Assembly (NCBI GenBank): GCA_965287045.1
Contig: OZ336876.1
Location: 63,922,001 to 63,986,000 of the forward strand
DNA from: Carcharhinus amblyrhynchos
Lineage: Eukaryota
Reading direction: 5' to 3'
Length of the DNA stretch: 64,000 nucleotides
Shown here piece after piece: positions 2,935-64,000 of this stretch (position 1 is the stretch's first letter; the number at the start of each line of letters is the position of its first letter). Under the pieces are notes generated by a model that did no database searches, was not told the DNA's origin, and saw nothing but the letters and a program-made list of their open reading frames with translations. The translations under genes were made by a program, and so were the position numbers.

Positions 2935-3043
2935 AGGAAGAACATACAGACTCCACACACACAGTGACCCAGGCTGGGAATTGAACCCAGGTCCCTGTAG
3001 CTGTGAGGTAGGAGCACCAACCACTGTGCCACCATGCCACCCA
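2935..3043 (-). mobile_element. HE1-type SINE head
   Basis: Minus strand ggtggcatggtggcacagtggttgg (A box) ... gggttcaattcccagc (B box). Confidence 0.8.
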
Positions 3044-7384: not shown

Positions 7385-8012
7385 AGCTTCTATTAGATTG
7401 GAAAATAGTAAATGTAATTCCTTTGTTCAAAAGGGAGGGAGACAGAAAACAGCAAGTTATAGGCCATTTAGCCTAACACCCATCATATGGAATATGTTGG
7501 AAGCTGTTACTGACATTAGAGCAGGGAGCTTAGATAAATTCAAGGTCGTCAAGCAGAATCAACTTGGTTTTGTGAGAGGAACATAGTGTTTAACTTAGTT
7601 ATTGGAGCTCTTTGAAGAAGTAACATGTGTTGTGGATGAAGAGGGACTGTTGGATGCATTGGACTTAGATTTCCAGAAGGCATTTGATAACCTGCAATGT
7701 CAAAGTTTATTACGGAAAATAAAAGTTCATGGCAGGGAGTAATGTACTAACATGGATGGAAGATTAGTAGGCTAACAGGAAACAGGGATTTGACATAAAT
7801 GGGTCATTTTTGGTTGGCAAGATGTAATGAGCGGTGTGCCATGGGGAACAGTTTTGGGGCATCAACTCTTTAAGATTTGTATAAATTACTTGGATGAAGA
7901 AACCAAAAGTATGGTTGCTGAATTTGCTGATGACACACGGATGGGTAAGAAAGTGAAGTCTGAAGTGAACATAAGGAGGTTACAAAAGGATATGGTTAGG
8001 TAAAGTGATTGG
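7385..8012 (+). mobile_element. Old CR1 RT segment, continuing at 10520-11275
   Basis: SYRPFSLT, LDFQKAFD and KFADDT-like motifs. Confidence 0.8.
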
Positions 8013-9500
8013 ATAAGTTTGGAATAGCAATGGCAGATTGGAAAACAGCAAATGTGGCGCCCCTATTTAAAAAAGAAGGTAGACAAAAGGTAGGTAACTA
8101 TAGGCCAGTTAGCTTAACTTCCGTAATAGGGAAAATACTTGAACCAATCATCAAGGAAGAAATAGCGAGACATCTGGATATAATTTGTCCCATTGGTAAG
8201 ACGCAGCATAGGTTCATGAGGGGTCGGTCATGTTTGACTAATTTGGTGGAATTCTTTGAGAACATTACATTGCAGTGGACAATGGGGAACTGTGGATGTG
8301 GTGTATCTGGATTTCCTGAAGGCATTTGACAAAGTGCCACACCAAAGAATGCTGCATAAGATAAAGGTGCATGCTGTTACAGGTAATCTATTAGCATGGA
8401 TAGAGGATTGGTTAACTAACAGGAAGCAAAGAGTGGGGGAAAATGGGTGTTTTTCTGGTTGGTGATCAGTGACAGTGGTGTGCCTCAAGGATCAGTGTTG
8501 CGACTGCAATTGTTTACGATTTACATAGATGATTTGGAGTTGGGGACCAAGTGCAGTGTGTTGAAGTTCGCAGGTGACACTAAGATGAGTGGCAGAGCAA
8601 AGTGTGCAGATGATGCTGAAAGTCTGCAAAGAGATATAGATAATCTAAGTGAGTGGGTGAGGGTCTGGCAGATGAAGTACAGTTTTGGTAAATGTGATAT
8701 CATCCATTTTGGTAGGAATAACAGCAAAATGGACTCTTATTTAAATGGTACGAAATTGCAGCATGCTGCCGTGCAGAGGGACCCGGGTGTCCTTGTGCAA
8801 GAATCACAAGGAGTTGGTTTGCAGGTGCAGCAGATAATTAAGAAGGCAAATGAATTGTGTCCGCCATTGCTAGAGGGATGGAGTTTAAAAACAGCGAGGT
8901 TATGTTGCAGCTGTATAAGGTGATGGTGAGGCCACACCTGGAGTATTATGTATAGTTTTGGTCTCCTTACTTCAGAAAGGGTATACTGGCACTGGAGGGG
9001 GTGCAGAAGGGATTCACTCGGTTGATTCTGGAGTTGAAAGGGTTGACTTATAAGGAGAGAGTGAGTAGACTGGGGCTATACTCATTGGAATTCAGAAGAA
9101 TGAGGGGTTATCTTATAGAAACATATAAGATTATGACGGGAATAGACAAGATAAAATCGGGGAAGTTGTTTCCACTGGCGGGTGAAACTAGAACTAGGGG
9201 GCATGGCCTCAAAATAAGGGGGAGCAGATTTAGGACTGAGTTGAGGAGGAATTTCTTCACACAAAGGGTTGTGAATCTGTGTGGAATTCCCTGTCCAGTA
9301 AAGCAGTTGAGGCTACCTCATTGAATGTTTTTAAGGCAAGGAAAGATAAATTTTTGAACAGTAAATGAATTAAGAGTTATGGTGAGCAGGGAGTAAGTGG
9401 AGCTGAGTCCACAAAAAAATCAGTCATGATCTTACTGAATGGCAGAGCAAGCTTGAGATGCCGGATGGCCTACTCCTGCTTCTTGTTCCTATGTTCTTTT
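8013..9500 (+). mobile_element. CR1 LINE nested in an older CR1
   Basis: NYRPVSLTS, YLDFLKAFDKV, GVPQGSVL, KFAGDTK and TRGH motifs plus 3'UTR. Confidence 0.9.
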
Positions 9501-9634: not shown

Positions 9635-10162
9635 TGGCGATTCTGCATTGTCGTGATTCATGAAGGCCACCCTGGAGAAAGTTTACCCAAAGATCAGAGG
9701 CTGAATGCCTGTGACTACTGAAGTGTTCCCCAACAGGAAGAGAACACTCCTGCCCGGTGATTGTTGAGCGGAATAATCGCTGAGCAGAAACTGATAGCCA
9801 AGTTCTGCACGCATGAGGACGGCCTCAACTGGGATCTTGGGTTCATGTCACACTATCTGTAACCCCCATGACTTGCCTGGGCTTGCACATCTTTTTAATC
9901 TGTGCTTAACCCTCTCTCCACTCACATTGTCTGTACCTTTAAGACTTGATTACCTGTAAAGACTGGCATTCCAACCATTACCTTGTAAATTGAGTTTGTG
10001 TCTTACATGCCCTGTTTGTGAACAAAATTCCCACTCACCTAATGAAGGAGCAGCGGTCCGAAAGCTTGTGGCTTGTGCTACCAAATAAACCTGCTGGACT
10101 TTAACCTGGTGTTGTGAGACTTCTTACTGTGTTTATCCCAGCCCAATGCTGGTGTCTCTACA
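9635..10162 (+). mobile_element. Penelope-like element 3' end (GIY-YIG C-terminus plus terminal repeat), with inverted 5' piece
   Basis: AEQKLIAKFCTHEDGLNWDLGFMSHYL* at about 9779-9862; hammerhead with a mutated core (CTAATGA, 10039); 9635-9740 matches the minus-strand GIY-YIG segment at 58315-58405. Confidence 0.75.
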
Positions 10163-14598: not shown

Positions 14599-14828
14599 AT
14601 GATGTGGAGATGCAGGTGTTGGACTGGGGTGGGCACAGTAGGAAGTGTCACAACACCAGGTTAAAGTCCAGCAGGTTTATTTGGTATAACGAGCTTTCAG
14701 AGCACTGCTCCTTCATCAGGTGAGTGAAGAGTTGGGTTCACAAACAGGGCATATAGACAAAGACTCAAGGTAATGGTTGGAATGCGAGTCTTTATAGGCA
14801 ATCAGGTCTTTACAGGTACAGACAATGT
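14599..14828 (-). mobile_element. Penelope-like terminal repeat fragment
   Basis: Reverse complement of the 9920-10160 sequence (caacaccaggttaaagtcca...); contains a hammerhead motif. Confidence 0.75.
14688..14726 (-). ncRNA. Minimal hammerhead motif, core intact, stems partly decayed
   Basis: Reverse complement reads CAC-CTGATGA-A-GGAGC-AGT-GCTCT-GAAA-GCTC-GTT. Confidence 0.65.
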
Positions 14829-20279: not shown

Positions 20280-21960
20280 AGAAACATAGAAAATAGGAGC
20301 AGTGGTAAGCCATTCACCCTTTGATCCTGCTCCACCATTCATTATGATGATTCCTGATCATCCATCCTTTGACCATCTCTGCCCCAAGAGCAAAATCTAA
20401 CTCCTTGAAAATATACAATGTTTTGGCCTCGACTGCTTTCTGTGGTAATAAATTCCACAAGCTTACCATTCCCTGGGTGAAGAAATTTCTCCTCATCTCA
20501 GTCCTAAAAGGTTTACCGTGTATCCTTAAACTATGACTTCTAGTTCTGGACACTCCTACCACTGGGGACATCCTGCCTGCATCCACCCTTTCTAGTCCTG
20601 TTAGAATATTATATGATTCAATGAGATCCCGCCCTCATTCTTCTCAACTCCAGAGAATGTAATCCTAACTGACTCTATCTCTCTTCATATGTCAGTCCTA
20701 TCAGCCCAGGAGGTCTGTTAGACCTTCTTTGCACACCCTTTATAGCAAAAACATTGTTCCTCAGATAAGGAGACCAAAATTGCACACAACATTCCAGGTA
20801 TGGCCTCACCTAGGCCCTGTATAATAGCAGCAAGACATACTCCTGTATTCAAATCGTCTCGCTATGAAGGCAGACATTTGGACAAGCTGAGTGACTGAGC
20901 AAATACATAACAAACGCAGTATGATGTGGATAAATGTGAGCTGATCCACTTTGGTAGCAAAAACAGGAAGGCAGATTATTATTTAAATGGCTATAAATTG
21001 AGAGAGGGGAATGTGCGATACGATCTGGGTGTCCCTATATACCAGTCGCTGAAGGTAAGAATTTAGGTGCAGCAGGCGGTAAAGAAGCAAATAGTATTCT
21101 GCCTTCATAGCGAGAGGCAAACATACCATTTGCCTTCTTCACCGCCTGCTGCACCTAAATTCTTACCTTCAGCGACTGGTATATAGGAACACCCAGATCG
21201 CGTTGCACATTCCCCTCTCTCAATTTATAGCCATTCAGATAATAATCTGCCTTCCTGTTTTTGCTACCAAAGTGGATCAGCTCACATTTATCCACATCAT
21301 ATTGCATTTGCTCAATCATTCAGCTTGTCCAAATCATACCAAAGCATTTCTCCATCCTCCTCACAGCTCACCCTCCCAACCAGCTTTGTGTCATCTACAA
21401 ATTTAGAGATATTACATTTAATTTACTCATCTAAATCATTAATACATACTGTAAAAGCTGGGGTCCTAGCACTGATCCCAGTGGTATTCCACTAATCACT
21501 GCCTGCCATTTGGAGAATGACTCTTTCATTCCTACTCTTTGCCAACCAGTTTTCTTTCCATCCCAATACACTACCCCCAATCCCATGTGCTTTAATTTTA
21601 CAGGCTAAAATCTTATGTGGGACTTTGTTGAAAGCCTATTGAAAGTCTAAATAAACCACACCCACTGGCTCACCTTGATCAAGTCTTATAGTTTAATTCT
21701 CAGAGAATTCCAGTAGGTTTGTTGAGCAATGATTTCCGTTTTGTAACTCTGTCTGATTCCACCATCATTTACCAAATACTCTGTCATAACATCTTTGTTA
21801 ATGAACTCTATAAGTTTCCCCACTACTTACATCAGATTGACTAGTCTATAATTCTCTGTTTTCTTCCTACCTCCCTTTTTTAAATAGTGGGGTTATATTA
21901 ACTACCTGCCAATCTGTAGGAACTGTTCCAGAGTCTACAGAATATTGGATGATGACCAGC
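20280..21960 (-). mobile_element. CR1 LINE with internal inverted duplication
   Basis: SRTRSHSLR...RRNFFTQ on the minus strand; 20876-21115 is an inverted copy. Confidence 0.85.
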
Positions 21961-24918: not shown

Positions 24919-25611
24919 ATGAACCCAGCCAGTGGCGCTGCTGAAAACAGACAACATCCTCACAACAAGAAACAGCAGCGAGCCTCATCGCCGGCCAGGT
25001 TCCGGGATATTAACTCCAGACCCTCCATAAAGACTTCCTTCGGTACCAAATCGAGCACACTCAAGCAGGGTTACCACCCGAGCCGCTTTTCCAACCAGGG
25101 GGCTGCGAATCTGAAAGAGAAAGCGAGCCGAGCCGGGGCTGCTGTCCGCTCCGCTGGTGCTGAAAGGGAGATCGCCGCGCCCGAGGAGCCCGCCAGGGTG
25201 GAGGCGGAAAGCTGCCGCTTCGCCCCGAGGAAGAACTCGGATTTTCCCCTCGCGAAGAGTGGTCGGGCGGCCGGGGACCCCCTTGAGAAAGTGGACGGTG
25301 CGGTAAAGGCAGCGCGGGGCAAAGCAGGCGAGCAGCAGCCGGCCGGAGGAGGTGGTAGTGGGGAGGCGGAGGGCAGCGGGCAGCCAGGAGGAGCGGGGAG
25401 GGGTCCCGGGCTTGGCCTCTACACTCAGAGCGCGGGGTTTGGGTCGCCGCCCGGTGCTGCGGCCGTCATGCACACCAAAACTACAGCGGAGCCCGACAGC
25501 CAGAACGAGAGAGCGGCGGGCGGATCCAACATGGAGACAATAATGACTGAGCAAGAAAAGAGCCTGCAAGAGGAGGTGGAGAAGCTGCGCTCGGAAAACC
25601 TGGGCCTCAAG
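24919..25611 (+). CDS. SOGA3: SOGA3/MTCL3 first coding exon (low-complexity N-terminus and start of coiled coil)
   Basis: ATG at 24919 in GC/CpG-rich ORF MNPASGAAENRQHPHNKKQQRASSPARFRD..., resembling the recalled SOGA3 N-terminal QQRAxSPAR motif; ends ...LRSENLGLK at phase-0 donor AAG|gtaaga (25612); probable acceptor ttacag| at 24810 gives a 5'UTR part from 24811. Confidence 0.88.
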
Positions 25612-25857: not shown

Positions 25858-26181
<324 letters not shown>

Positions 26182-26334: not shown

Positions 26335-26661
<327 letters not shown>

Positions 26662-35989: not shown

Positions 35990-37015
35990 AAAGAACAAAG
36001 AAAATTGCAGCATAGGAACAGGCCCTTCGACCCTCCAAACCTGCAGTGACCATGCTGCCCAACTGAACTAAAACCTTCTACCCTTCCGGGGACCATATCC
36101 CCCTACTTTCATCCTATTCATGTATTTGTCCAGATGTCCCTTAGAACTCACTATCATATCTACTTCCACTATCTCCCCCGGCAGCGAGTTCCACCCACCA
36201 CCACCTGTATAAAAAAAAACTTGCCATGTACTTCTCCTTTAAACCTTGCTCCTCGCACCTTAAACCTATGCCCCCTAGTAATTGACTCTTCCACCATGGG
36301 GAAAAAGCTTCTGACTATCCACTCTGTCCATGCCCCTCGTAATCTTGTAGAGGCCTATCAGGTCACCCCTCAACCTCCGTTGTTCCAGTGAGAACAAACC
36401 AAATTTCGCCAACTTCTCCTCATAGCTAATGCCTTCTATACCATGCAACATCCTGGTAAATCTTTTCTGTATCCTCTCCCAAGCCTCCATATCTTTCTGG
36501 TAGTGTGGCGACCAGAATTGAACACTATATTCCAAGTGTGGCCTAACTAAGATTCTGTGAAGCTGCAGCCAATTGAAGACTTGCCAGTTTTTAAGCTCAG
36601 TGCCCTGGCTGGTGAAGGCAAGCATGCCGTATGACTTCTTGACTACCTTCTGCACTTGCATTGCCACTTTCAGTGACCTGTTACCTGTACACTCAGATCC
36701 CTCTGCCTATCGACACTCTTAAGGGTTCTGCCATTTACTGTATACTTCCTATCTTAGACCTTCCAGACTGCATTACCTCACATTTATCTGGATTAATCTC
36801 CATCTGCCATCACTCCACCCAAGGCTCCAACTGATCTATACCCTGCTGCATCTTCTGATGGTCCTGATTGCTATCTGTAAATCCACCAATCTTTGCGTCA
36901 TTCACAAACTTACTGATCAATTCAGTTACATTTTCCTCCAAATCATTTATATGTTACAAACAGCAAAGATCCCAGAACTGATCCCTGAGGAATGCGGCTT
37001 GCCACAGCCCTCCAT
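35990..37015 (-). mobile_element. CR1 LINE
   Basis: VRPHLEYSVQFWSPH...RRLRGDLI. Confidence 0.9.
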
Positions 37016-44687: not shown

Positions 44688-45665
44688 CATAGAGTCATAG
44701 AGGCTTACAGCACGGAAACAGGCCCCTCGGCTCAACGTGTCCATGCCGCCCTTTTTTTTTTTGAAACCCCTAAACTAACCCCAATTGTCCGCATTTGGCC
44801 CATATCGCTCTATACCTATCGTACCCATGTAACTATCTAAATGCTTTTTAAAAGATAAAATTGTCCCTGCTTGTACTACTACCTCTGGCAGCTTGTTCCA
44901 GACACTCACCACCCTCAGTGAAAAAATTGCCCCTCAGGACACTTTTGTATCTCTCCCCTCTCACCTTAAACCTATGCCCTCTAGTTTTAGATTCCTCTAC
45001 TTTTGGGAAAACGTATTGACTATTTACCTTGTCTTTGCCCCTCATTATTTTATAGACCTCTATAAGGTCACCCCTCCGGCTCCTACACTCCAAGAAAAAA
45101 AGCCCCAGTCTATTCAGCCTCTCCTTAAACTTAATCCATCAAGTCCTGGTAGCATCCTAGTAAATCTTTTCTGCACTCTTTCTAGTTTAATAATATCCTT
45201 CCTATAATAGGGTGACCAGAATTACACATGGTAAGGCTGCACTTGGAATACTAATGTCTTGTACAACTTCATCAAGACATTCCAACTCCTGTATTCAATG
45301 TTCTGACTGATGAAACCAAACATGCCGAATGCCTTCTTCACCACTCTGTCCATTTGTGACTCCACTTTCAAGGAGTGAAAGGCACCCCCAGATCTCTTTG
45401 TTCTGTACCTCTCCCCAACGCCCTACCATTAACTGAGTAAGTCCTGCCCTGGTTCAAAGTACAAAATGCATTACCTTGTATTTGTCTATATTAAACTCCA
45501 TCTGCCATTCATCAGCCCACTGGCTCAATTGATCAAGATTCTGCTGCAATTGGAGATAACCTTCCTTTCTGTCCAGTATGCCACCAATCTCGGTGTCATC
45601 AGCAAACTTACTAACCATGCCCCTATATTCTCATTCAAATCATTAATATAAATGACAAATAACAA
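44688..45665 (-). mobile_element. CR1 LINE
   Basis: RGDLIEVYKIMRG...SKTRGHRFKVRG. Confidence 0.9.
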
Positions 45666-48384: not shown

Positions 48385-51300
48385 CGCAGAGACATGGCTG
48401 CAAGAGGATCAGGGCTGGGATCTAAATATCCAAGGATATGTGTCCTATTGGAAGGACAGGCAGATAGGTAAAGGGGCAGGATTGCATTGTTAGTGAGGAA
48501 TGAAGTCAAATCGATAGCAAGAAGTGATATTGGATCAGAAGGCATAGAATCTCTGTAGGTGGAGTTGAGGAATTGCGAAGGTAAAAAGACCCTGATAGGA
48601 GTTATGTACAGTTCCCCCTAGCAGTAGTCAGGATGTGGAGCAGAAATAAATCAGGAAATAGAAAAGACATATAAAAAAGGCAATATTACTGTAATCATGG
48701 GGGACTTCAGTATGCAGGTGGACTGGGAAAATCAGGTGGTAGTGGATCCCAAGAAAAGGAATTTGTGGAATGTCTAAGATTTTTTTTTTGGAGCAGCTTG
48801 TGACAGAACCTACTAGGGAACAGGCAATTCTGGACTTAGTGATGTATAATGCAGCAGACCTGATTAGGGAACTTAAGGTGAAGGAACCCTTAGGGAGCAG
48901 TGACCACAAAATGATAGAATTTACCCTGCAGTTTGAGAGGGAGAGGCTGGAATCAGGTGTAATGATGTTACAATTAAATAAAGGTAACTACAAAGACATG
49001 AGGGAGGAGCTGGCTAGAGTTGATTGGAAAGGGAATCCTTTCCAGCAGGGAAGACAGTGGAACAGCAATGGCAGGAGTGTTTGAGAGTTATTCAGGAAGC
49101 ACAACAGAAATTCATCCCAAGGAGGAGGAAACATACGAAGGGGAGGACAAGGCACTCATGGCTGATGAGGGAAGTCAAGGACAGCATAAAAGCAAAAGAA
49201 AAAGCATACAAATTGGCAAGGATTAGTGGGAAGCCAGAGGATTGGGAAACCTGTAAAAGCAAGCAGAAGACAACTAAAAAAGCTATAAGAGGGGAGAAAA
49301 TGAAATACGAGTGTAAGCTAGCTAATAATATAAAAGAAGATGGGAATAATTTTTTCGACATTTAAAAGGTAAGAGAAAGGCAAAAATAGCCATTGGACCA
49401 CTGGAGAAATAATAATTGGAAACAAAGCAATGGCAGAGGAACTGAGTAGTTACTTTGCATCAGTCTTCACAGTGGAAGATACCAGTAGGATGCCAGAGCT
49501 CCAGGAAAGTCAGGGGGCACAGATGAATGTAGTGGCCATCACTAAGGAGAAGGTTCTGAAGTTGGATAAATCACTTGGACTGGGTGGGCTACACCCTAGG
49601 GTTCTAAAAGTGATAGCTGAGGAAATTATGGAGGCATTGGTGGTGAACATTCAGGAATCGATTGAGGCAGGGAGGGTACCAGAAGACTGGAAAGTAAGTA
49701 ATGTAACACCGCTGTTTAAGAAGGGAGGGAGGCAGCAGATTGGAAATTATAGGCCGGTTAGCCTGACTTCGGTCATTGGCAAGATTTTATAGTCTGTTAT
49801 TAAAGATGAGATCACAGAGTACTTGCAAGTGCATGATAAAGAAGGATTGAGTCAGCATGGCTTCATCAAGGGGAGGTTATGTCTGACAAATCTGTTTGAG
49901 TTCTTTGAGGAGCTAACAAGGAAGTTAGATAAAGGAGAACAAGTGGACGTGCAAATTGTGCGGAGGGTGTGGAGAGTCTGCAGAAGGATCTAGATAGGCT
50001 GGGCAAATGGGCCAGGAAATGGCAAATGGAATTTAATGTTGGCAGGTGTGAGGTGGTCCACTTTGGTAGCAAGAATGGTAGGAAGGACTATTACTTACAT
50101 GGCGAAAAACTGCAGCAGGTGATGGTGCAGAGGGACCTCGGGGTCCTTGTGCATGAGTCGCAAAAACCCAGCTTGCAGGTGCAGCAGGTGGTCAGGAAGG
50201 CGAATGGGATGCTGGCCTTCATAGCGAGGGGGATTGAATATAAAAGTAGGGAGGTCTTGCTGCAGCTGTATAGGGCATTGGTGAGGCCGCAGCTGGAGTA
50301 CTGTGTGCAGTTTTGGGCGCCGCACCTGCGCAAGGATATTTTGGCCTTGGAGGGAGTGCAGAGGAGGTTTACTCGGCTGATACCGGAGTTGAGGGGGTTG
50401 AGCTATGAGGAGAGGCTGAATAAACTAGGCTTGTACTCATTAGAGTTTAGAAGAATGAGGGGAGATCTCATTGAGACGTATAAGATGATGAATGGGATGG
50501 ATAGGATAGAGGTGGAGAGACTCTTCCCGCTCAAAATAGACAGTAGGACTAGGGGGCACAGCCTCAAGATAAAGGGGAGGCGGTTTAGAACGGAGTTGAG
50601 GAGGAACTTCTTCACTCAAAGGGTGGTGAATCTCTGGAATTCTCTGCCCGTTGAAGTGGTGGAGGCTACCTCGCTAAATATTTTTAAGAAGCTGGTTGAT
50701 GGGTTCTTGATAAGAGAGGGGATTAAGGGTTATGGGGAGAGGGCGGAAAAGTGGAACTGAGCCATGACAGATCAGCCATGATCTTATTGAATGGCGGGGC
50801 AGGCTCGAAGGGCTAGATGGCCTACTCCTGCTCCTATTTCTTATGTTCTTATGATTTATTTAGATTTCCAGAAGGCCTTTGGACAAGGTGCTGTATAGGA
50901 GGCTGTTAAATAAGTTATGTATTCATAGTATTAAGGGTAAGATCCTGACATGAATAAAGGATTGGCTGGCTGGTAGAAGGCAGACAGTGGGGATAAAGGG
51001 ATCTACTTCAGGATGGTAGCTGGTGACTAGTGAGTGTCAGGTGTCAGTGCTGGGACCGTAACTTTTCACAATATACACTAATGATTTGGAGGGAAGAACT
51101 GAAGGCACTATTGCTAAGTTTGCAGGTGATAGAAAGATATGTAGAGGGACAGGTAGTATTGAGGAAGCAGAGGGATTGCAGAAGGACTTGGACAGGTCAG
51201 GAGAATGGCAAGGAAGTGGCAGATGGAATACAATGTAGAAAAATGTGAGGTTAAGCACTTTGGAAGGATGAATGAAGACATAGACTATTTTCTAAATGGG

Positions 51301-51810
51301 AAAATGCTTAGGAAATCAGAAACACAAAGGGTATGGGAGTCCTTGTTCAAGATTTTCTTAAGGTTAATGTGCAGGTTCAGTCGGCAGTTAGGAAGGCAAA
51401 TGCAATGTTAGCATTCATGTCGAGAAGGTTAGAATACAAGAGCAGGGATGTACTTCTGAGGCTGTATAAGGCTCTGGTCAGCCCCCATTTGGAGTATTGT
51501 GAGCAGTTTTGGACCCCATATCTAAGGAAGGATGTGCTGGCCTTGGAAAGAGTCCAGAAGAAGTTCACAAGAATGATCCCTAGAATGAAGAGCTTGGCGT
51601 ATGAGGAACGGTTGAGGACTCTGGGACTGAACTTGTTGGAGTTTAGAAGGATGAGAAGGGATCTTATTGAAACTTATAGAAGACTGTGAGGTCTGGATAA
51701 GGTGGAAGTAGAGAGGATGTTTCCACTAGTAGGAAAAACTGGAACCAGAGGGCACAACGCAGGCTAAAGGGATGATCCTTTAAAACAGAATTTCTTCAGC
51801 CAGAAAGTGG
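48385..51810 (+). mobile_element. Older CR1 LINE (APE endonuclease plus RT, frameshifted), host of the 49952-50853 insert
   Basis: EPTREQAILDLV, LGSSDH, NYRPVSLTS, YLDFQKAF and RPHLEYC-type motifs. Confidence 0.9.
49952..50853 (+). mobile_element. Young 5'-truncated CR1 LINE (intact C-terminal ORF2 plus 3'UTR)
   Basis: Uninterrupted 263-codon ORF (WQMEFNVGRC...RPQLEYCVQFW...RGDLIETYK...TRGH...WNSLP) ending at 50760; CpGs retained; tail ttcttatg x2. Confidence 0.92.
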
Positions 51811-56526: not shown

Positions 56527-59500
56527 TAGAATCATACAGCACAGAAGAGGCCCTTCAGCCCATCGAGTCTGCAATGGAAACACCTGAACTCCCACCTAAT
56601 CCCATCTACCGGCGCTTGGCCCATAGCCCTGAATGTTGTGGTGGGCCAATTGCTCATCCAGATGCTTTTTAAAGGATCTGAGGCAACCCACCTCCACCAC
56701 CCTCCCAGGCAGTGCATTCCAGACTGTCACCATCCTTTGGATAAAGAAGTTCTTCCTCACATCTGAACCTCCTGTCCTTCACTTTGAACCTACGTCCCCT
56801 CGTGATTGATCCTTCAATTAATGGAACAGCTGCTTCTTATCCACTCTGTCCATGTCAGTCATAATCTTGTACACCTCAATCAGGCCACCCCTCAGTCTTG
56901 TCTGCTCCAATGAAAACAACCCAAACCTACGCAACTGCTCTTCATAACTTAAATGTTCCATCCCAGGAAGCATCCTGGTGAATCTCCTCTGCACCCCCTC
57001 CAATGTAATCACATCCTTCTGATAATGTAGCAATCAGAACTGCACATACTACTCCAGCTATGGCCTCACCAAAGTTTTCTACAACTCCAGCATGATTTCC
57101 CTGCTTTTGTAATCTGTGCCTTGAATGATAAAGGCAAATGTCCCATATGCCCTTTTCACCACCCTTCTAACATGCCCTTCCACTGTCAGAGATCTGTGGA
57201 CAAACGTACCAAGATCCCTTTGTTCCACAGAACTTTCTAGTGCCGTACCATTCATTAAGTGCTTTCTTGTCAAATTACTCCTTCCAAAGTGTATCACCTC
57301 ACACTTTTCAGGGTTAAATTCCATCTGCCACTTATTTGACCATTCCGTCTATATCCTCTTGTAGCCCAAGACATTCTGCCTCACTGTTAACTACACGTCC
57401 AATTAACTAATCCTGTCCCCCACAAAGTCATCAATGTAATTTATATAAATGAAAAATAATAAGGAGCCCAACACAGACCCCTGTATGCCATTGGACACTG
57501 GCTTCCAGTCACTAAAGCAGCTTTCTGGTGTCATCATCATCTCTCTCCTACACTGAGACAATTTTCAATCCATTTTATCAAATTACTCTGTATCCCTTGT
57601 GAATTTACATTCTTTACAAGTCTCCCACTTGGGAACTTGTCAAAGGCTTTGCTGAAATCCATATAAACTACATTACCCTCATCTATACATCTGTTCACCA
57701 CCCCAGAAAATTTAATCAAATTTGTTAAGCATGACCTCCCTCTGACGAAGCTATGCTGACTATCCCTATCAAGCTTTGCCTCTCCAAGTAGAGATGGATG
57801 CTCTCCTTCAGAAGTTTCTCTAATAGCTTCTACCACTGATGTGAGACTCACTGGTCTGTAGATCCCGGTTTATGTCTACAACCCTTCTTAAATAGTGGAA
57901 CTACATTAGCTGTTCTCCAGTCATCTGGCACCTCTCCAGTGAGATGTCTCACAACACCAGGTTAAAGTCCCACAGGTTTATTTGGTAGCAAAAGCCACTA
58001 GCTTTTGGAGTGCTGCTCCTTCTTCAGGTAAGTGGGAGTTCTGTTCACAAAGAGGGCATATAAAGACACAAACTCAATTTACAAAATAATGGTTGAAATC
58101 TGAGTTTTTACAGGTAATCAAGTCTTAAAGGTACAGACAATGTGAGTGGAGAGAGGGTTAAACACAGGTTAAAGATGTGTATTGTCTCCAGCTGGGACAG
58201 TTAGTGAGATTTTGCAAAGCAGGTAAGTCACAGGGGTTACAGATAGTGTGACATGAACCTAAAATCCCGGTTGAGGCCGTCTTCATGCATGCGGAACTTG
58301 GCTATCAGTGTCTGCTCAGCGACTCTGCATTGTCAAGTGTCGTGAAGGCTGCCTTGGAGAATGCTTACCTGAAGATCAGAGGCCGAATGCCTGTGACTGC
58401 TGAAGTAACTCGCATTCATTCACGTTGTCTGTACTTTTTAAGATTTGATTACTGTAAAGACTCGCATTCCAACCATTATTTTGTAAATTGAGTTTGTGTT
58501 TTTATATGCCCTGTTTGCGAACAGAAGGAGCAGTGCTCCGAAAGCTAGTGGTTTTTCGACCAAATAAACCTGTTGGACTTTAACCTGGTGTTGTGAGACT
58601 TCTTACTGTATTTACCCCTGTCCAATGCCAGCATCTCCACATCATGACCTCCCCAGTGGCCAGAGTAGAATTGAAAATTTAGATGAGAGCCCCTGCAATC
58701 TCCTCCCTGGCCTCCCATAGCAGCCTAGGGCACAATTAATCCAGACCAGGAGATTTATCCACTTTAAAGGTAGTCAACACCTCCAATACCTTGTCCTTTC
58801 CAATGCCAATTTGCTCAAGAACCTGTGTCTCTCCCTGAATTCCATACTATCATCCTCATTTTCTTGGGTGAAGGCAATGTGAAGGATACAGTCAATCGGT
58901 ATCCTGTGGCTCCACTCACAGATTGCTTCCTTGGTCCCTAATGGGTCTTACTCTTGCCCTGGTTATTCTCTTCCCACTTCTATATTTATAGAATATGTTG
59001 GGATTTTCCCTACTTTTACCAGTCACCGGTTTCTCGTATCCCCCTTTGCATTTCTAATTGCTTTCTTAAGCTCCACTCTGCACTTTCTATGCCTCACTAA
59101 TGCCTCAACTAATTTGCTCCCTTGTACTTTCTTTTCCTTCTCGTTGTATCCTGAATATCTGTGGTCTTCCATGGTTTTCTGGGCTTGTTATTTCTCACCT
59201 ATCACCCTAGAGGGAACACACTGGGCTTGCACCCTCTCCATTTCTTTTTTGAATGCTCTCCACTGCTCTTCAGTAGACTTTCCCATTTGTAGCTGTTCCC
59301 AGTCTACCTTGGCCAGATCCTGTCTTTTTTACTAAAATCCACTCTTCCCCCAGTCCAAAACTCTTTTTTTGCAGCTTGTCTATTTCCTTGTCCGTAATGA
59401 GCTTAAATTGTACCATGTTGCGATTGCTCTTACTAAAATGCTCCACTGCCACCACCTCAACCACCTGTCAGGCTACATTCCCCAGAATCAGGTCCAGCAG

Positions 59501-61863: not shown

Positions 61864-61935
61864 TCTTCATTAAAGCGACGAGGAAGTAAAGACCTGCAAA
61901 AATCTGAGAAGAAATCTCAACAGGTCACTCACGAG
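61864..61935 (+). CDS. SOGA3: SOGA3/MTCL3 coding exon (24 aa), absent from the ORF track
   Basis: Polypyrimidine tract plus tttatag| acceptor; SSLKRRGSKDLQKSEKKSQQVTHE continues the recalled SOGA3 sequence (LKRRGSKD..KSEKK); donor GAG|gtattg; 72 nt, phase 0. Confidence 0.9.
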
Positions 61936-62042
61936 GTATTGTGATTATTAAGAGGTTTATAATAGATTTTTGACAGTACCATGACAATTTTTCAGGAGAC
62001 CTTTTGAAGACTAATAGTGGCCACTGTGTGGATTAAAAGGCA

Positions 62043-62363
62043 TGATGTGGGTATGCCAGCGTTGGACTGGCGTAAACACAGTGAAAAGTCTGACAACACC
62101 AGGTCTGGAGACAATACACATCTCTTTAAACTGTGATCAGTGCTCCTTCCACTCACATTATCAGCCACTTCAGGTCTTGAACAGCAGGTTAGGTGTAAGG
62201 ATTTGCATTCTAATCAGTAATCTCTAAACTGTCTGTGCTTTATATGTTCTGTCTGAGGCCAGAACTCTCCATTCACCTGACGAAGGGGCTAACCCCGAAA
62301 GCTTGTGAGTATATTATCAACTAAATAGGTTGGACTAAAACCTGGTGTTGTCAGACTTTTCAC
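62043..62363 (+). mobile_element. Short Penelope-like insertion carrying an intact hammerhead
   Basis: TSD tggattaaaaggca at 62029-62042 and 62364-62377; perfect 25-bp inverted repeat 62079-62103 / 62341-62365. Confidence 0.8.
62271..62310 (+). ncRNA. Minimal type I hammerhead ribozyme motif (Penelope-associated), apparently intact
   Basis: ATTCAC-CTGACGA-A-GGGG-CTAA-CCCC-GAAA-GC-TT-GTGAGT: core CUGANGA...GAAA...UH, 4-bp stem II, 6-bp stem I, palindromic AAGCUU in place of stem III. Confidence 0.8.
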
Positions 62364-64000
62364 TGGATTAAAAGGCACCATTTTTAATAGAAACTAAAAG
62401 ACGCAATATTTTATATGGCTTTGAGGATTAATTGTCCAAATTTGTATCAATGTGACTTATGGGGGCTTAGAATGGCACTCAAAAGTTGCAGCACTGTTCT
62501 TATTGCTGCATTCACAACCACCGCCCCCAATGGGTTCACAGGCATTGCCAGCTGGTCTTGGAACTGGACAGCCAGAGTGACTACCTGGTCCAAGCTGACA
62601 CCACATTAAGATATGTACGTAGGGGTCCCATGATGTGCAGGCATATAGGAACTCAATTCAATTTGCCAGACCTAATGAGCAGAATGAGCTCAGCACATGC
62701 TGTAAGTATTGGTACCTAAATGTAAAACAGCCTAACTACTAATCCTTAACAGGATCACTGCAGAGTAATCAGAGCTCAAAAAACGGCCCCATTAAGTTTT
62801 AAAATATTTATGGAGTCAGAAAGAACATTAGAGCTTATGCAAGTCCATCCCATTGACTATCGGGCCTTCATGTACTCATACTCAGCCTGTCCCCCAATGT
62901 ACTCCCTGTGATTGCCTCTCCTGTTGCACTTTCACTTCCATTTCACTTGCACTTTCTCAGTTCTGGGGAGAAGTCATCAAATTTTGTGTGCCTCCTTAGC
63001 TCAGTAAGCTGTTTTTGAGTGTTGTTTCGATAATGACACCTCTCTATTTCAAATGAAAACCAATCATTAAAGTGGCTTGGGCACCACATGAGGACATTAA
63101 GTGGGTGACACAGTCCCTGCCCACTGTACACCTTAAATCCACTGAAGTAAGAATCAGTGTCATGAAGTTAGAATATTACACCATCCTTAGCTTTGCATCT
63201 CTTCTAGCTTTTTTTTGATGTTCTCCACTGCTTTATATCAGCAGTGGCAGTGCAAATTCATCATTAAGCTCTGGAAGCATGATCAGAGTGGCCAACATCC
63301 ATCAAACCTATGCACTTTTATTTGGGCATGAGATCATTCGTCAGCAGCCTCACCAAAAACCAACAAGATGCTTATTGTCAGGTGGCATTGAGCAGCATAA
63401 TGGTCTCCTGAAAGCTGCATGCATATGTGCAAGTTTTGTGCAATTGACATTCATTACTTAGTGTGTAACCTTTAGGAAAATGTTAAGGGAGTGCAGATTT
63501 CCTTTCAACATAATTTTTTATTCAATCATCATCACACTAACTGCTGCAATGTTTACCTTTGGATTTATTTTCTCCAATCTCACTGTTTCTCATTGACCAT
63601 TTTTACCTGTTGGCCTTTGACACTGTTTCCTCCCAGGTTCACTCTCTCCCAAAAACTAAGTATGTGCAGAGATTAAACCTGAGTGTTATTGGTACCACAA
63701 ACTAATGAGAAACAGCACTCCTGAAGTATTGTGTTGAAGTGTCAATCTGAATTACTCTCTTAAGGCTTACAGAACAACATTTGAACTGAGAGCCTTCAGA
63801 CTCAAGTATGATCACGATGCCAGCTGAGCTAATTTGGCACTGACATAATTAATGTATTCATCAGTCCATGCCTGTAGAGCAGTGGTTCCCAAGTAGTGTG
63901 CCATGGAGATCCTCCAATTGTGTCATGAAAAAAAGATTCAAAATTCATGCAATTAAACTAACATCAACCTTCATCTTCAGCTCTGAGGTTGGGTTTTCCA

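Follow-up and report, generated by a model that had tools for sequence, protein, structure and literature searches.

An intact minimal hammerhead in a SOGA3 intron of Carcharhinus amblyrhynchos belongs to a recent Penelope-like element insertion and is probably spliced out uncut

Does an intact hammerhead ribozyme that lies in sense orientation in an intron of SOGA3 cut the pre-mRNA that carries it? This question is raised by a locus in Carcharhinus amblyrhynchos, which we analysed within a window of 64,000 nucleotides (contig OZ336876.1; positions count from the first letter of the window). An earlier note, made from the letters of this DNA, had suggested that the motif could cut SOGA3 pre-mRNA with the aid of a partner copy or release small RNAs. 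As we discuss below, the motif is very probably a minimal hammerhead in the pLTR of a recent, 5'-truncated copy of a Penelope-like element (PLE) and, at SOGA3, a passenger that escapes cutting and is removed when the intron is spliced.

Inspection of the sequence found every part of a minimal type I hammerhead at 62271..62310 on the + strand, where the earlier note had placed it. A 6-bp stem I, including one G-U pair (62271-62276 with 62305-62310), encloses the core CUGACGA (62277-62283), a bulged A (A62284), stem II (GGGG 62285-88 with CCCC 62293-96), and GAAA (62297-62300) followed by GCUU, with U17 at the cleavage site and the predicted scissile bond at 62304/62305. The motif has the features of PLE minimal hammerheads, namely a CUGAnGA...GAAA...UH core, helices I and II but no helix III, a palindrome at positions 15.2-16.2 (AGCU), the bulged A62284, and a G10.1-C11.1 pair. 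The proposal that AAGCUU stands in for stem III held in part: the palindrome is there, but only its inner AGCU (62300-62303) can pair as stem III, forming 4 bp of AGCU/AGCU in a dimer, and the outer A and U are core A14 and the cleavage-site U17. Pairing of all six bases would be off-pathway, tying up the cleavage site, and in folding calculations the outer-base pairs add 2.6 kcal/mol of stability. U17 is slower to cleave than C17 or A17.

A strict descriptor, which required the exact core, a stem II of at least 4 bp, a stem I of at least 5 bp, and a palindromic stem III, matched a single site on both strands of the window, that at 62271..62310, and no site in any of 200 dinucleotide shuffles of the window. 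Both the completeness of the motif and its standing as the one copy in the window that is fully intact, next to four damaged remnants, were thus upheld. A covariance-model search for hammerhead families gave none: the Rfam scan returned 10 matches at E<=10, none of them a hammerhead. Folded alone, the 40-nt motif forms stems I and II, with an unremarkable whole-fold z of -1.0.

The hammerhead sits inside a 323-bp insertion (62043-62365), a young PLE copy flanked by a 12-bp target-site duplication (TSD; left copy 62031..62042, right copy 62366..62377; 14 bp with a shared TG). The direct arm (62103..62365, + strand, 263 nt) is the 5'-truncated, non-coding pLTR/3' end of the element; mapped on locus L031, a longer copy, it begins ~43 nt past the ORF stop and finishes at the "short" end, and its identity to the best-scoring of the other copies (40 scored among 1,085 candidates) is 98-99%. 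The inverted short arm (62043..62104, - strand), which carries a 35-nt tail and terminates at the ORF start codon of the element, is too short for a second hammerhead and contains none; its 26 inner nucleotides pair with 62340-62365 in a predicted 26-bp stem with a probability of ~1. We rejected a MITE, as the inverted ends are those of a PLE doublet; a non-LTR retrozyme, as there is one hammerhead and an inverted arm but no head-to-tail tandem unit; and an assembly artefact, given the TSD and a precise empty site (see below).

The insertion lies within SOGA3/MTCL3, a gene on the + strand. Pfam and Atlas gave no name for its exons, which were named by a homolog search in which exon 25918-26151 was 92-97% identical to the 16 top-ranked cartilaginous-fish SOGA3/MTCL3 proteins. 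Coding exons placed by tblastn, all on the + strand, lie at 24919-25611, 25918-26151, ~26390-26556, 61864-61935, and from ~66099. The exon at 61864-61935 (24/24 amino acids in tblastn) precedes the host intron (+ strand, 61936 to ~66098; 4,163 nt), and the hammerhead begins 335 nt into that intron, in agreement with the ~340 nt past an exon donor, on the SOGA3 sense strand, that the earlier note had given.

The other four copies of the family in the window are older remnants. One lies in sense orientation in the previous SOGA3 intron (58538..58643, + strand), with the 5' half of the core deleted and AATAAA intact. Two are antisense: 57937..58063 (- strand; site 58030), with G12 changed to A, and 14601..14755 (- strand; site 14719), in which the core is intact and stem I is broken. 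The fourth (10003..10152, + strand; site 10039) lies upstream of all mapped coding exons and has core G5 changed to A. The stretches 9642-10152 and 57937-58643 are older PLE doublets with remnants of the GIY-YIG C-terminus, 70-84% identical to the young family. Many C-terminal fragments of LINE-type reverse transcriptase, putatively CR1-like, are also scattered through the SOGA3 introns and upstream (49933-50760, with an open frame of 275 aa; 8009-9324; 36275-36706; 44848-45138; 51312-51689). A long near-perfect hairpin at 21046-21175, which scores below threshold for Rfam MIR2275 on both strands, is probably a small inverted-repeat element, and a weak tRNA-like Rfam match below the gathering score at 2965-3038 (- strand) is possibly a SINE head.

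The exact 40-mer of the motif occurs 1,889 times in the genome (reversed control, 0), and a looser descriptor finds 31,453 occurrences. Of the 263 sites in the direct arm, 3 do not carry the base most common in that column among 61 other copies (two shared variants and one private), and across those 61 copies the hammerhead 40-mer is as variable as the 5' part of the arm or more so (2.3% vs 0.7%). In run X12, one 3,429-nt contig joins 62028 directly to 62364, with a single copy of the TSD and flanks that are ~1% different. This contig, the one of this kind in that run, is an empty orthologous site, from a close relative or another individual; contigs of the DNA runs X13 and X16 stop at the insertion edges with no bridging and were left out of the empty-site evidence. 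Because 1,889 copies are identical and the orthologous site is empty, the intactness of this copy reflects its youth, as the earlier note had allowed. The same two observations led us to reject a domesticated intronic hammerhead of the RECK type, which would be single-copy and conserved at the orthologous site.

Longer copies establish the kind of element. They run into a single ORF with matches to reverse transcriptase (Pfam RVT_1, E 1.1e-9) and, at the C-terminus, to GIY-YIG (E 5.2e-5, above the cut-off), which is the coding layout of an EN+ PLE. Locus L068 has an open frame of 897 aa, and locus L067 has the order pLTR-ORF-pLTR, with the same sequence on both sides of the ORF, the hammerhead in the pLTR, and the tail ending at the ATG. 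Between the reverse-transcriptase and endonuclease domains, the translation contains a C-x4-C-x2-C linker, which fits the CX2-5CxxC motif defined for the Neptune clade (PMC8557442) and present also in Nematis; by this motif, the family appears to be Neptune-type. All 22 doublets in which both outer ends were available have a long and a short arm that end ~35 nt apart, and 19 of the 22 have a TSD of at least 8 bp. Truncation at the 5' end, an inverted arm, a 30-40 bp tail at one end, and a TSD make up the EN+ PLE layout; the inverted arm plus tail is described for PLEs in PMC8557442 and PMC3846280, and PMC11167929 explains it by two start sites of reverse transcription.

Several other loci of the family deserve mention. 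Two young doublets (L014:1113-1763 and L019/L033, the latter at G000:C5:75935500-75938800) lie inside older related PLE copies, at insertion points in the linker region that agree to a few bases, and both have a CAAACTA-like duplication; the element may possibly prefer its own family as a target. L031:489-4561 (G000:C12:56977800-56982900) is a 4-kb near-perfect inverted doublet with arms 99.3% identical, and doublets of this type would give long double-stranded RNA if transcribed. At L067:5788-6161, the pLTR of a sister subfamily with a 5-bp stem II lies ~120 bp upstream of the 5' pLTR of the full-length element, in the same orientation.

Is the ribozyme maintained by the family? We aligned 40 of 43 distinct motifs from fetched loci, dropping three with the inversion junction on the 5' side; the rows, which were chosen for an intact core, are related, and counts from them are therefore not independent. 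In stem II, both sides change together, from G-C to A-U, at three of the four pairs (in 15, 9, and 4 rows); pairing holds in 96.8% of cells. Stem I has two cells changed on both sides and 87.1% of cells paired in the 40 rows, and the G10.1-C11.1 pair is G-C in 34 rows and G-U in 5. The structure outscores 500 of 500 shuffles for pairing and for the covariation score; the number of covarying pairs (38/500) and the pair types (115/500) do not stand out in this way. Absence of covariation across genomic copies, which the earlier note had named as an argument against a ribozyme, is thus not what stem II shows at the family level. A or U occupies position 17 in 28,805 of the 31,453 copies and C in a further 2,310; G, present in 338, is rare there, which fits the UH rule and selection for cleavage. 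Taken together, stem II covariation and the avoidance of G at position 17 suggest that the family likely keeps a working ribozyme. T is missing at position +2 in 3,556 copies (C in 87 of the first 100 listed, by hand count), and copies with C at +2 include at least two amplified subfamilies in which an A-C mismatch in stem I lies beside the cut, one of them with a 3-bp stem II. Amplification of such subfamilies into thousands of copies fits cleavage being dispensable.

By its sequence, the shark motif would work like the minimal hammerhead of PLEs, an already known kind of which it is a new member. Shark copies of a PLE hammerhead were not found in the literature covered, which was mostly other than subscription papers, and the supplements of PMC4209133 may list sharks. 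The minimal hammerheads described from the pLTRs of metazoan PLEs (PMC4209133; Cervera and De la Pena 2014) share with it the type I form lacking helix III, the bulged nucleotide between 9 and 10.1, G10.1-C11.1, the palindrome at 15.2-16.2, the presence of thousands of mostly single genomic copies, and opposite-strand pairs 100-700 bp apart; with 6 bp in helix I and 4 bp in helix II, however, the shark motif is nearer the canonical sizes than the Schistosoma families. Like PAc, a Poseidon element of Anolis studied in vitro (Frangieh et al. 2024, PMC11167929), the shark element has ends ~35 nt apart (the tail), uses both strands, and leaves its hammerhead uncut in genomic copies. According to the same paper, the PAc ORF begins within stem II, whereas the shark ATG marks the tip of the tail, 96 nt downstream of the cut; the shark ORF differs further in its Cys linker of Neptune/Nematis, and the shark duplications listed show no evident AT-rich target bias. 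Intronic hammerheads ultraconserved in amniotes (RECK, CTCL; PMC6155905) likewise lie on the sense strand of the host intron, but they are described as single-copy and conserved across amniotes, whereas the shark copy is a young, lineage-restricted repeat with no stem III.

Cleavage of SOGA3 RNA would call for the core of a partner. Apart from 62271..62310, the window and the 18 kb that follow it have no copy that is both in sense orientation and intact in its core, and those 18 kb yielded no further family copies of any kind; pairing in cis with the half copy at 58538 is predicted to give a duplex other than a hammerhead. In nearest-neighbour calculations, which omit tertiary and protein contributions, the active dimer has an energy of -22.3 kcal/mol compared with -26.1 for two monomer ensembles, the predicted gain from dimerisation is only ~3.5 kcal/mol, and the dimer of lowest energy is a duplex that is not catalytic. 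The probability of stem I falls from 0.86-0.99 in a 101-nt context to 0.02-0.06 in contexts of 263-351 nt (~0.03 at 351 nt). PLE hammerhead dimers have reportedly been studied by Lunse et al. (RNA Biol; cited in the review PMC6765202). In PMC4209133, monomers of minimal hammerheads do not cleave and dimers cleave weakly, and in PMC11167929 the hammerhead of PAc needs element protein in order to cut, is dispensable for insertion, and has no RNA-seq ends at its cut site. Sequencing-run data were available as contigs only, with 11 of 17 runs guessed to be RNA; in one of these probable RNA runs, X1, a spliced contig of 1,866 nt includes exon 61864-61935 with 0 differences and exits at the normal donor. 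With no partner core in cis, an active dimer no stabler than its monomers, and a spliced contig in hand, cutting of the pre-mRNA or release of small RNAs from it found no support.

The 3' strand of stem I, GTGAGT (62305..62310, + strand), also resembles a consensus 5' splice donor and starts exactly at the predicted cut. Full pLTRs have a pyrimidine-rich AG 71-73 nt after GTGAGT and upstream of the ATG, and AATAAA lies between the two in 87 of 93 distinct motifs, which makes possible a candidate 73-nt GT-AG pLTR intron opening at the scissile bond and enclosing AATAAA. The G at +1 is missing in just 1,096 scattered copies, in favour of a donor. C, the common variant at +2, is the one tolerated in splice donors. 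Against a donor, older subfamilies have weak donor sequences, and stem I pairing alone would explain GTG. The predicted joint is not among the three joints listed for four probable RNA runs (contigs). In some contigs that carry the ORF, the alignment starts at the predicted acceptor or no more than 4 nt from it, but these are from diverged subfamilies and their upstream parts are not visible. Genomic copies lacking the intron gave 0 matches, as expected with or without an intron. The Penelope element of Drosophila virilis, in which no intronless genomic copy was found either, has a proven 75-nt 5'-UTR pLTR intron whose 3' end meets helix I, as described in PMC2377424 and PMC4209133, whereas the predicted 73-nt shark intron upstream of the ATG overlaps helix I and has its 5' end at the scissile bond. 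Neither a donor at a hammerhead cut site nor a pLTR poly(A) signal was found in the literature covered, most subscription papers lying outside that scope.

Downstream of GTGAGT, this copy has ACTAAA (62320..62325, + strand) where the family has AATAAA. This is the sole private substitution in the 263-nt arm; the changed site is A in 60 of 60 other copies that cover it, and genomic 25-mers with ACTAAA number 5 compared with 7,000 with AATAAA. The change is suggestive, but sense AATAAA is tolerated in the previous SOGA3 intron.

These observations bear on three other accounts of the locus. That the motif arose by chance or by misassembly has a negligible probability: it lacks an Rfam match, but the shuffles yielded nothing like it, thousands of copies exist in the genome, and the insertion has both a TSD and a precise empty site. 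It is highly improbable, although partners in trans are in principle plentiful (31,453 genomic copies in a family abundant in probable RNA runs), that this copy is cut by element transcripts, with element protein, so as to lower or alter SOGA3 output. The copy is a perfect substrate site with 1,889 identical potential partners in a young family that has long open ORFs (897 aa in L068) and signs of selection for cleavage. The small dimer gain with its non-catalytic energy minimum, the lack of a partner core in cis, and the contig with the spliced SOGA3 exon nevertheless oppose it, as does the observation that introns cut slowly by hammerheads still splice (reviewed in PMC2995048).

We also think it very unlikely that the insertion acts on SOGA3 through processing signals, with GTGAGT serving as a cryptic donor and with AATAAA, since lost here by selection, directing premature poly(A) addition. 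The lone private change in 263 nt does fall in a 6-nt signal (~2% by position, judged post hoc), the ACTAAA form is rare, and no sense AATAAA is left in the 4.1 kb of host intron scanned. Five in 7,000, however, is the level of sporadic mutation, and each of the other four has a separate origin in its own copy; the previous intron has 19 sense AATAAA, one within an older copy of the same element; and the sole RNA-like contig over the exon exits at the normal donor. A broader proposal, which we regard as doubtful, is that the pLTR is an RNA-fate switch in which splicing, self-cleavage, and polyadenylation are mutually exclusive and sort transcripts into mRNA and uncut template, and that the damage done to host genes by sense-intronic copies comes from the poly(A) signal and not from the ribozyme. 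The donor at the scissile bond would then open a 73-nt intron that takes in AATAAA as well as one of the two ends of the tail. If true, this would explain the removal of AATAAA by the one private change in this copy.

An uncut passenger in SOGA3 thus remains the favoured reading, and we infer the following history. At insertion, the element protein would have nicked both strands ~12 bp apart, and cDNA primed at two RNA sites 35 nt apart would have produced the inverted doublet of long and short arms, with the RNA template uncut and the hammerhead therefore copied in full. Two motifs in element RNA would join through AGCU so that each core cuts the site of its partner, probably with help from the element protein; this reciprocal arrangement follows from the double-hammerhead geometry in PMC4209133. 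The lone copy in SOGA3 pre-mRNA, with no partner core, would rarely be cut and would be spliced out with its intron.

As a feature of SOGA3, this hammerhead carries little weight, since tens of thousands of such insertions exist and this is one recent example. Its family, a young PLE in a vertebrate whose ORFs are long and open, has a modest value of its own: its ~31,000 hammerhead copies include natural variants at each position, and this set of variants could test what PLE hammerheads are for.
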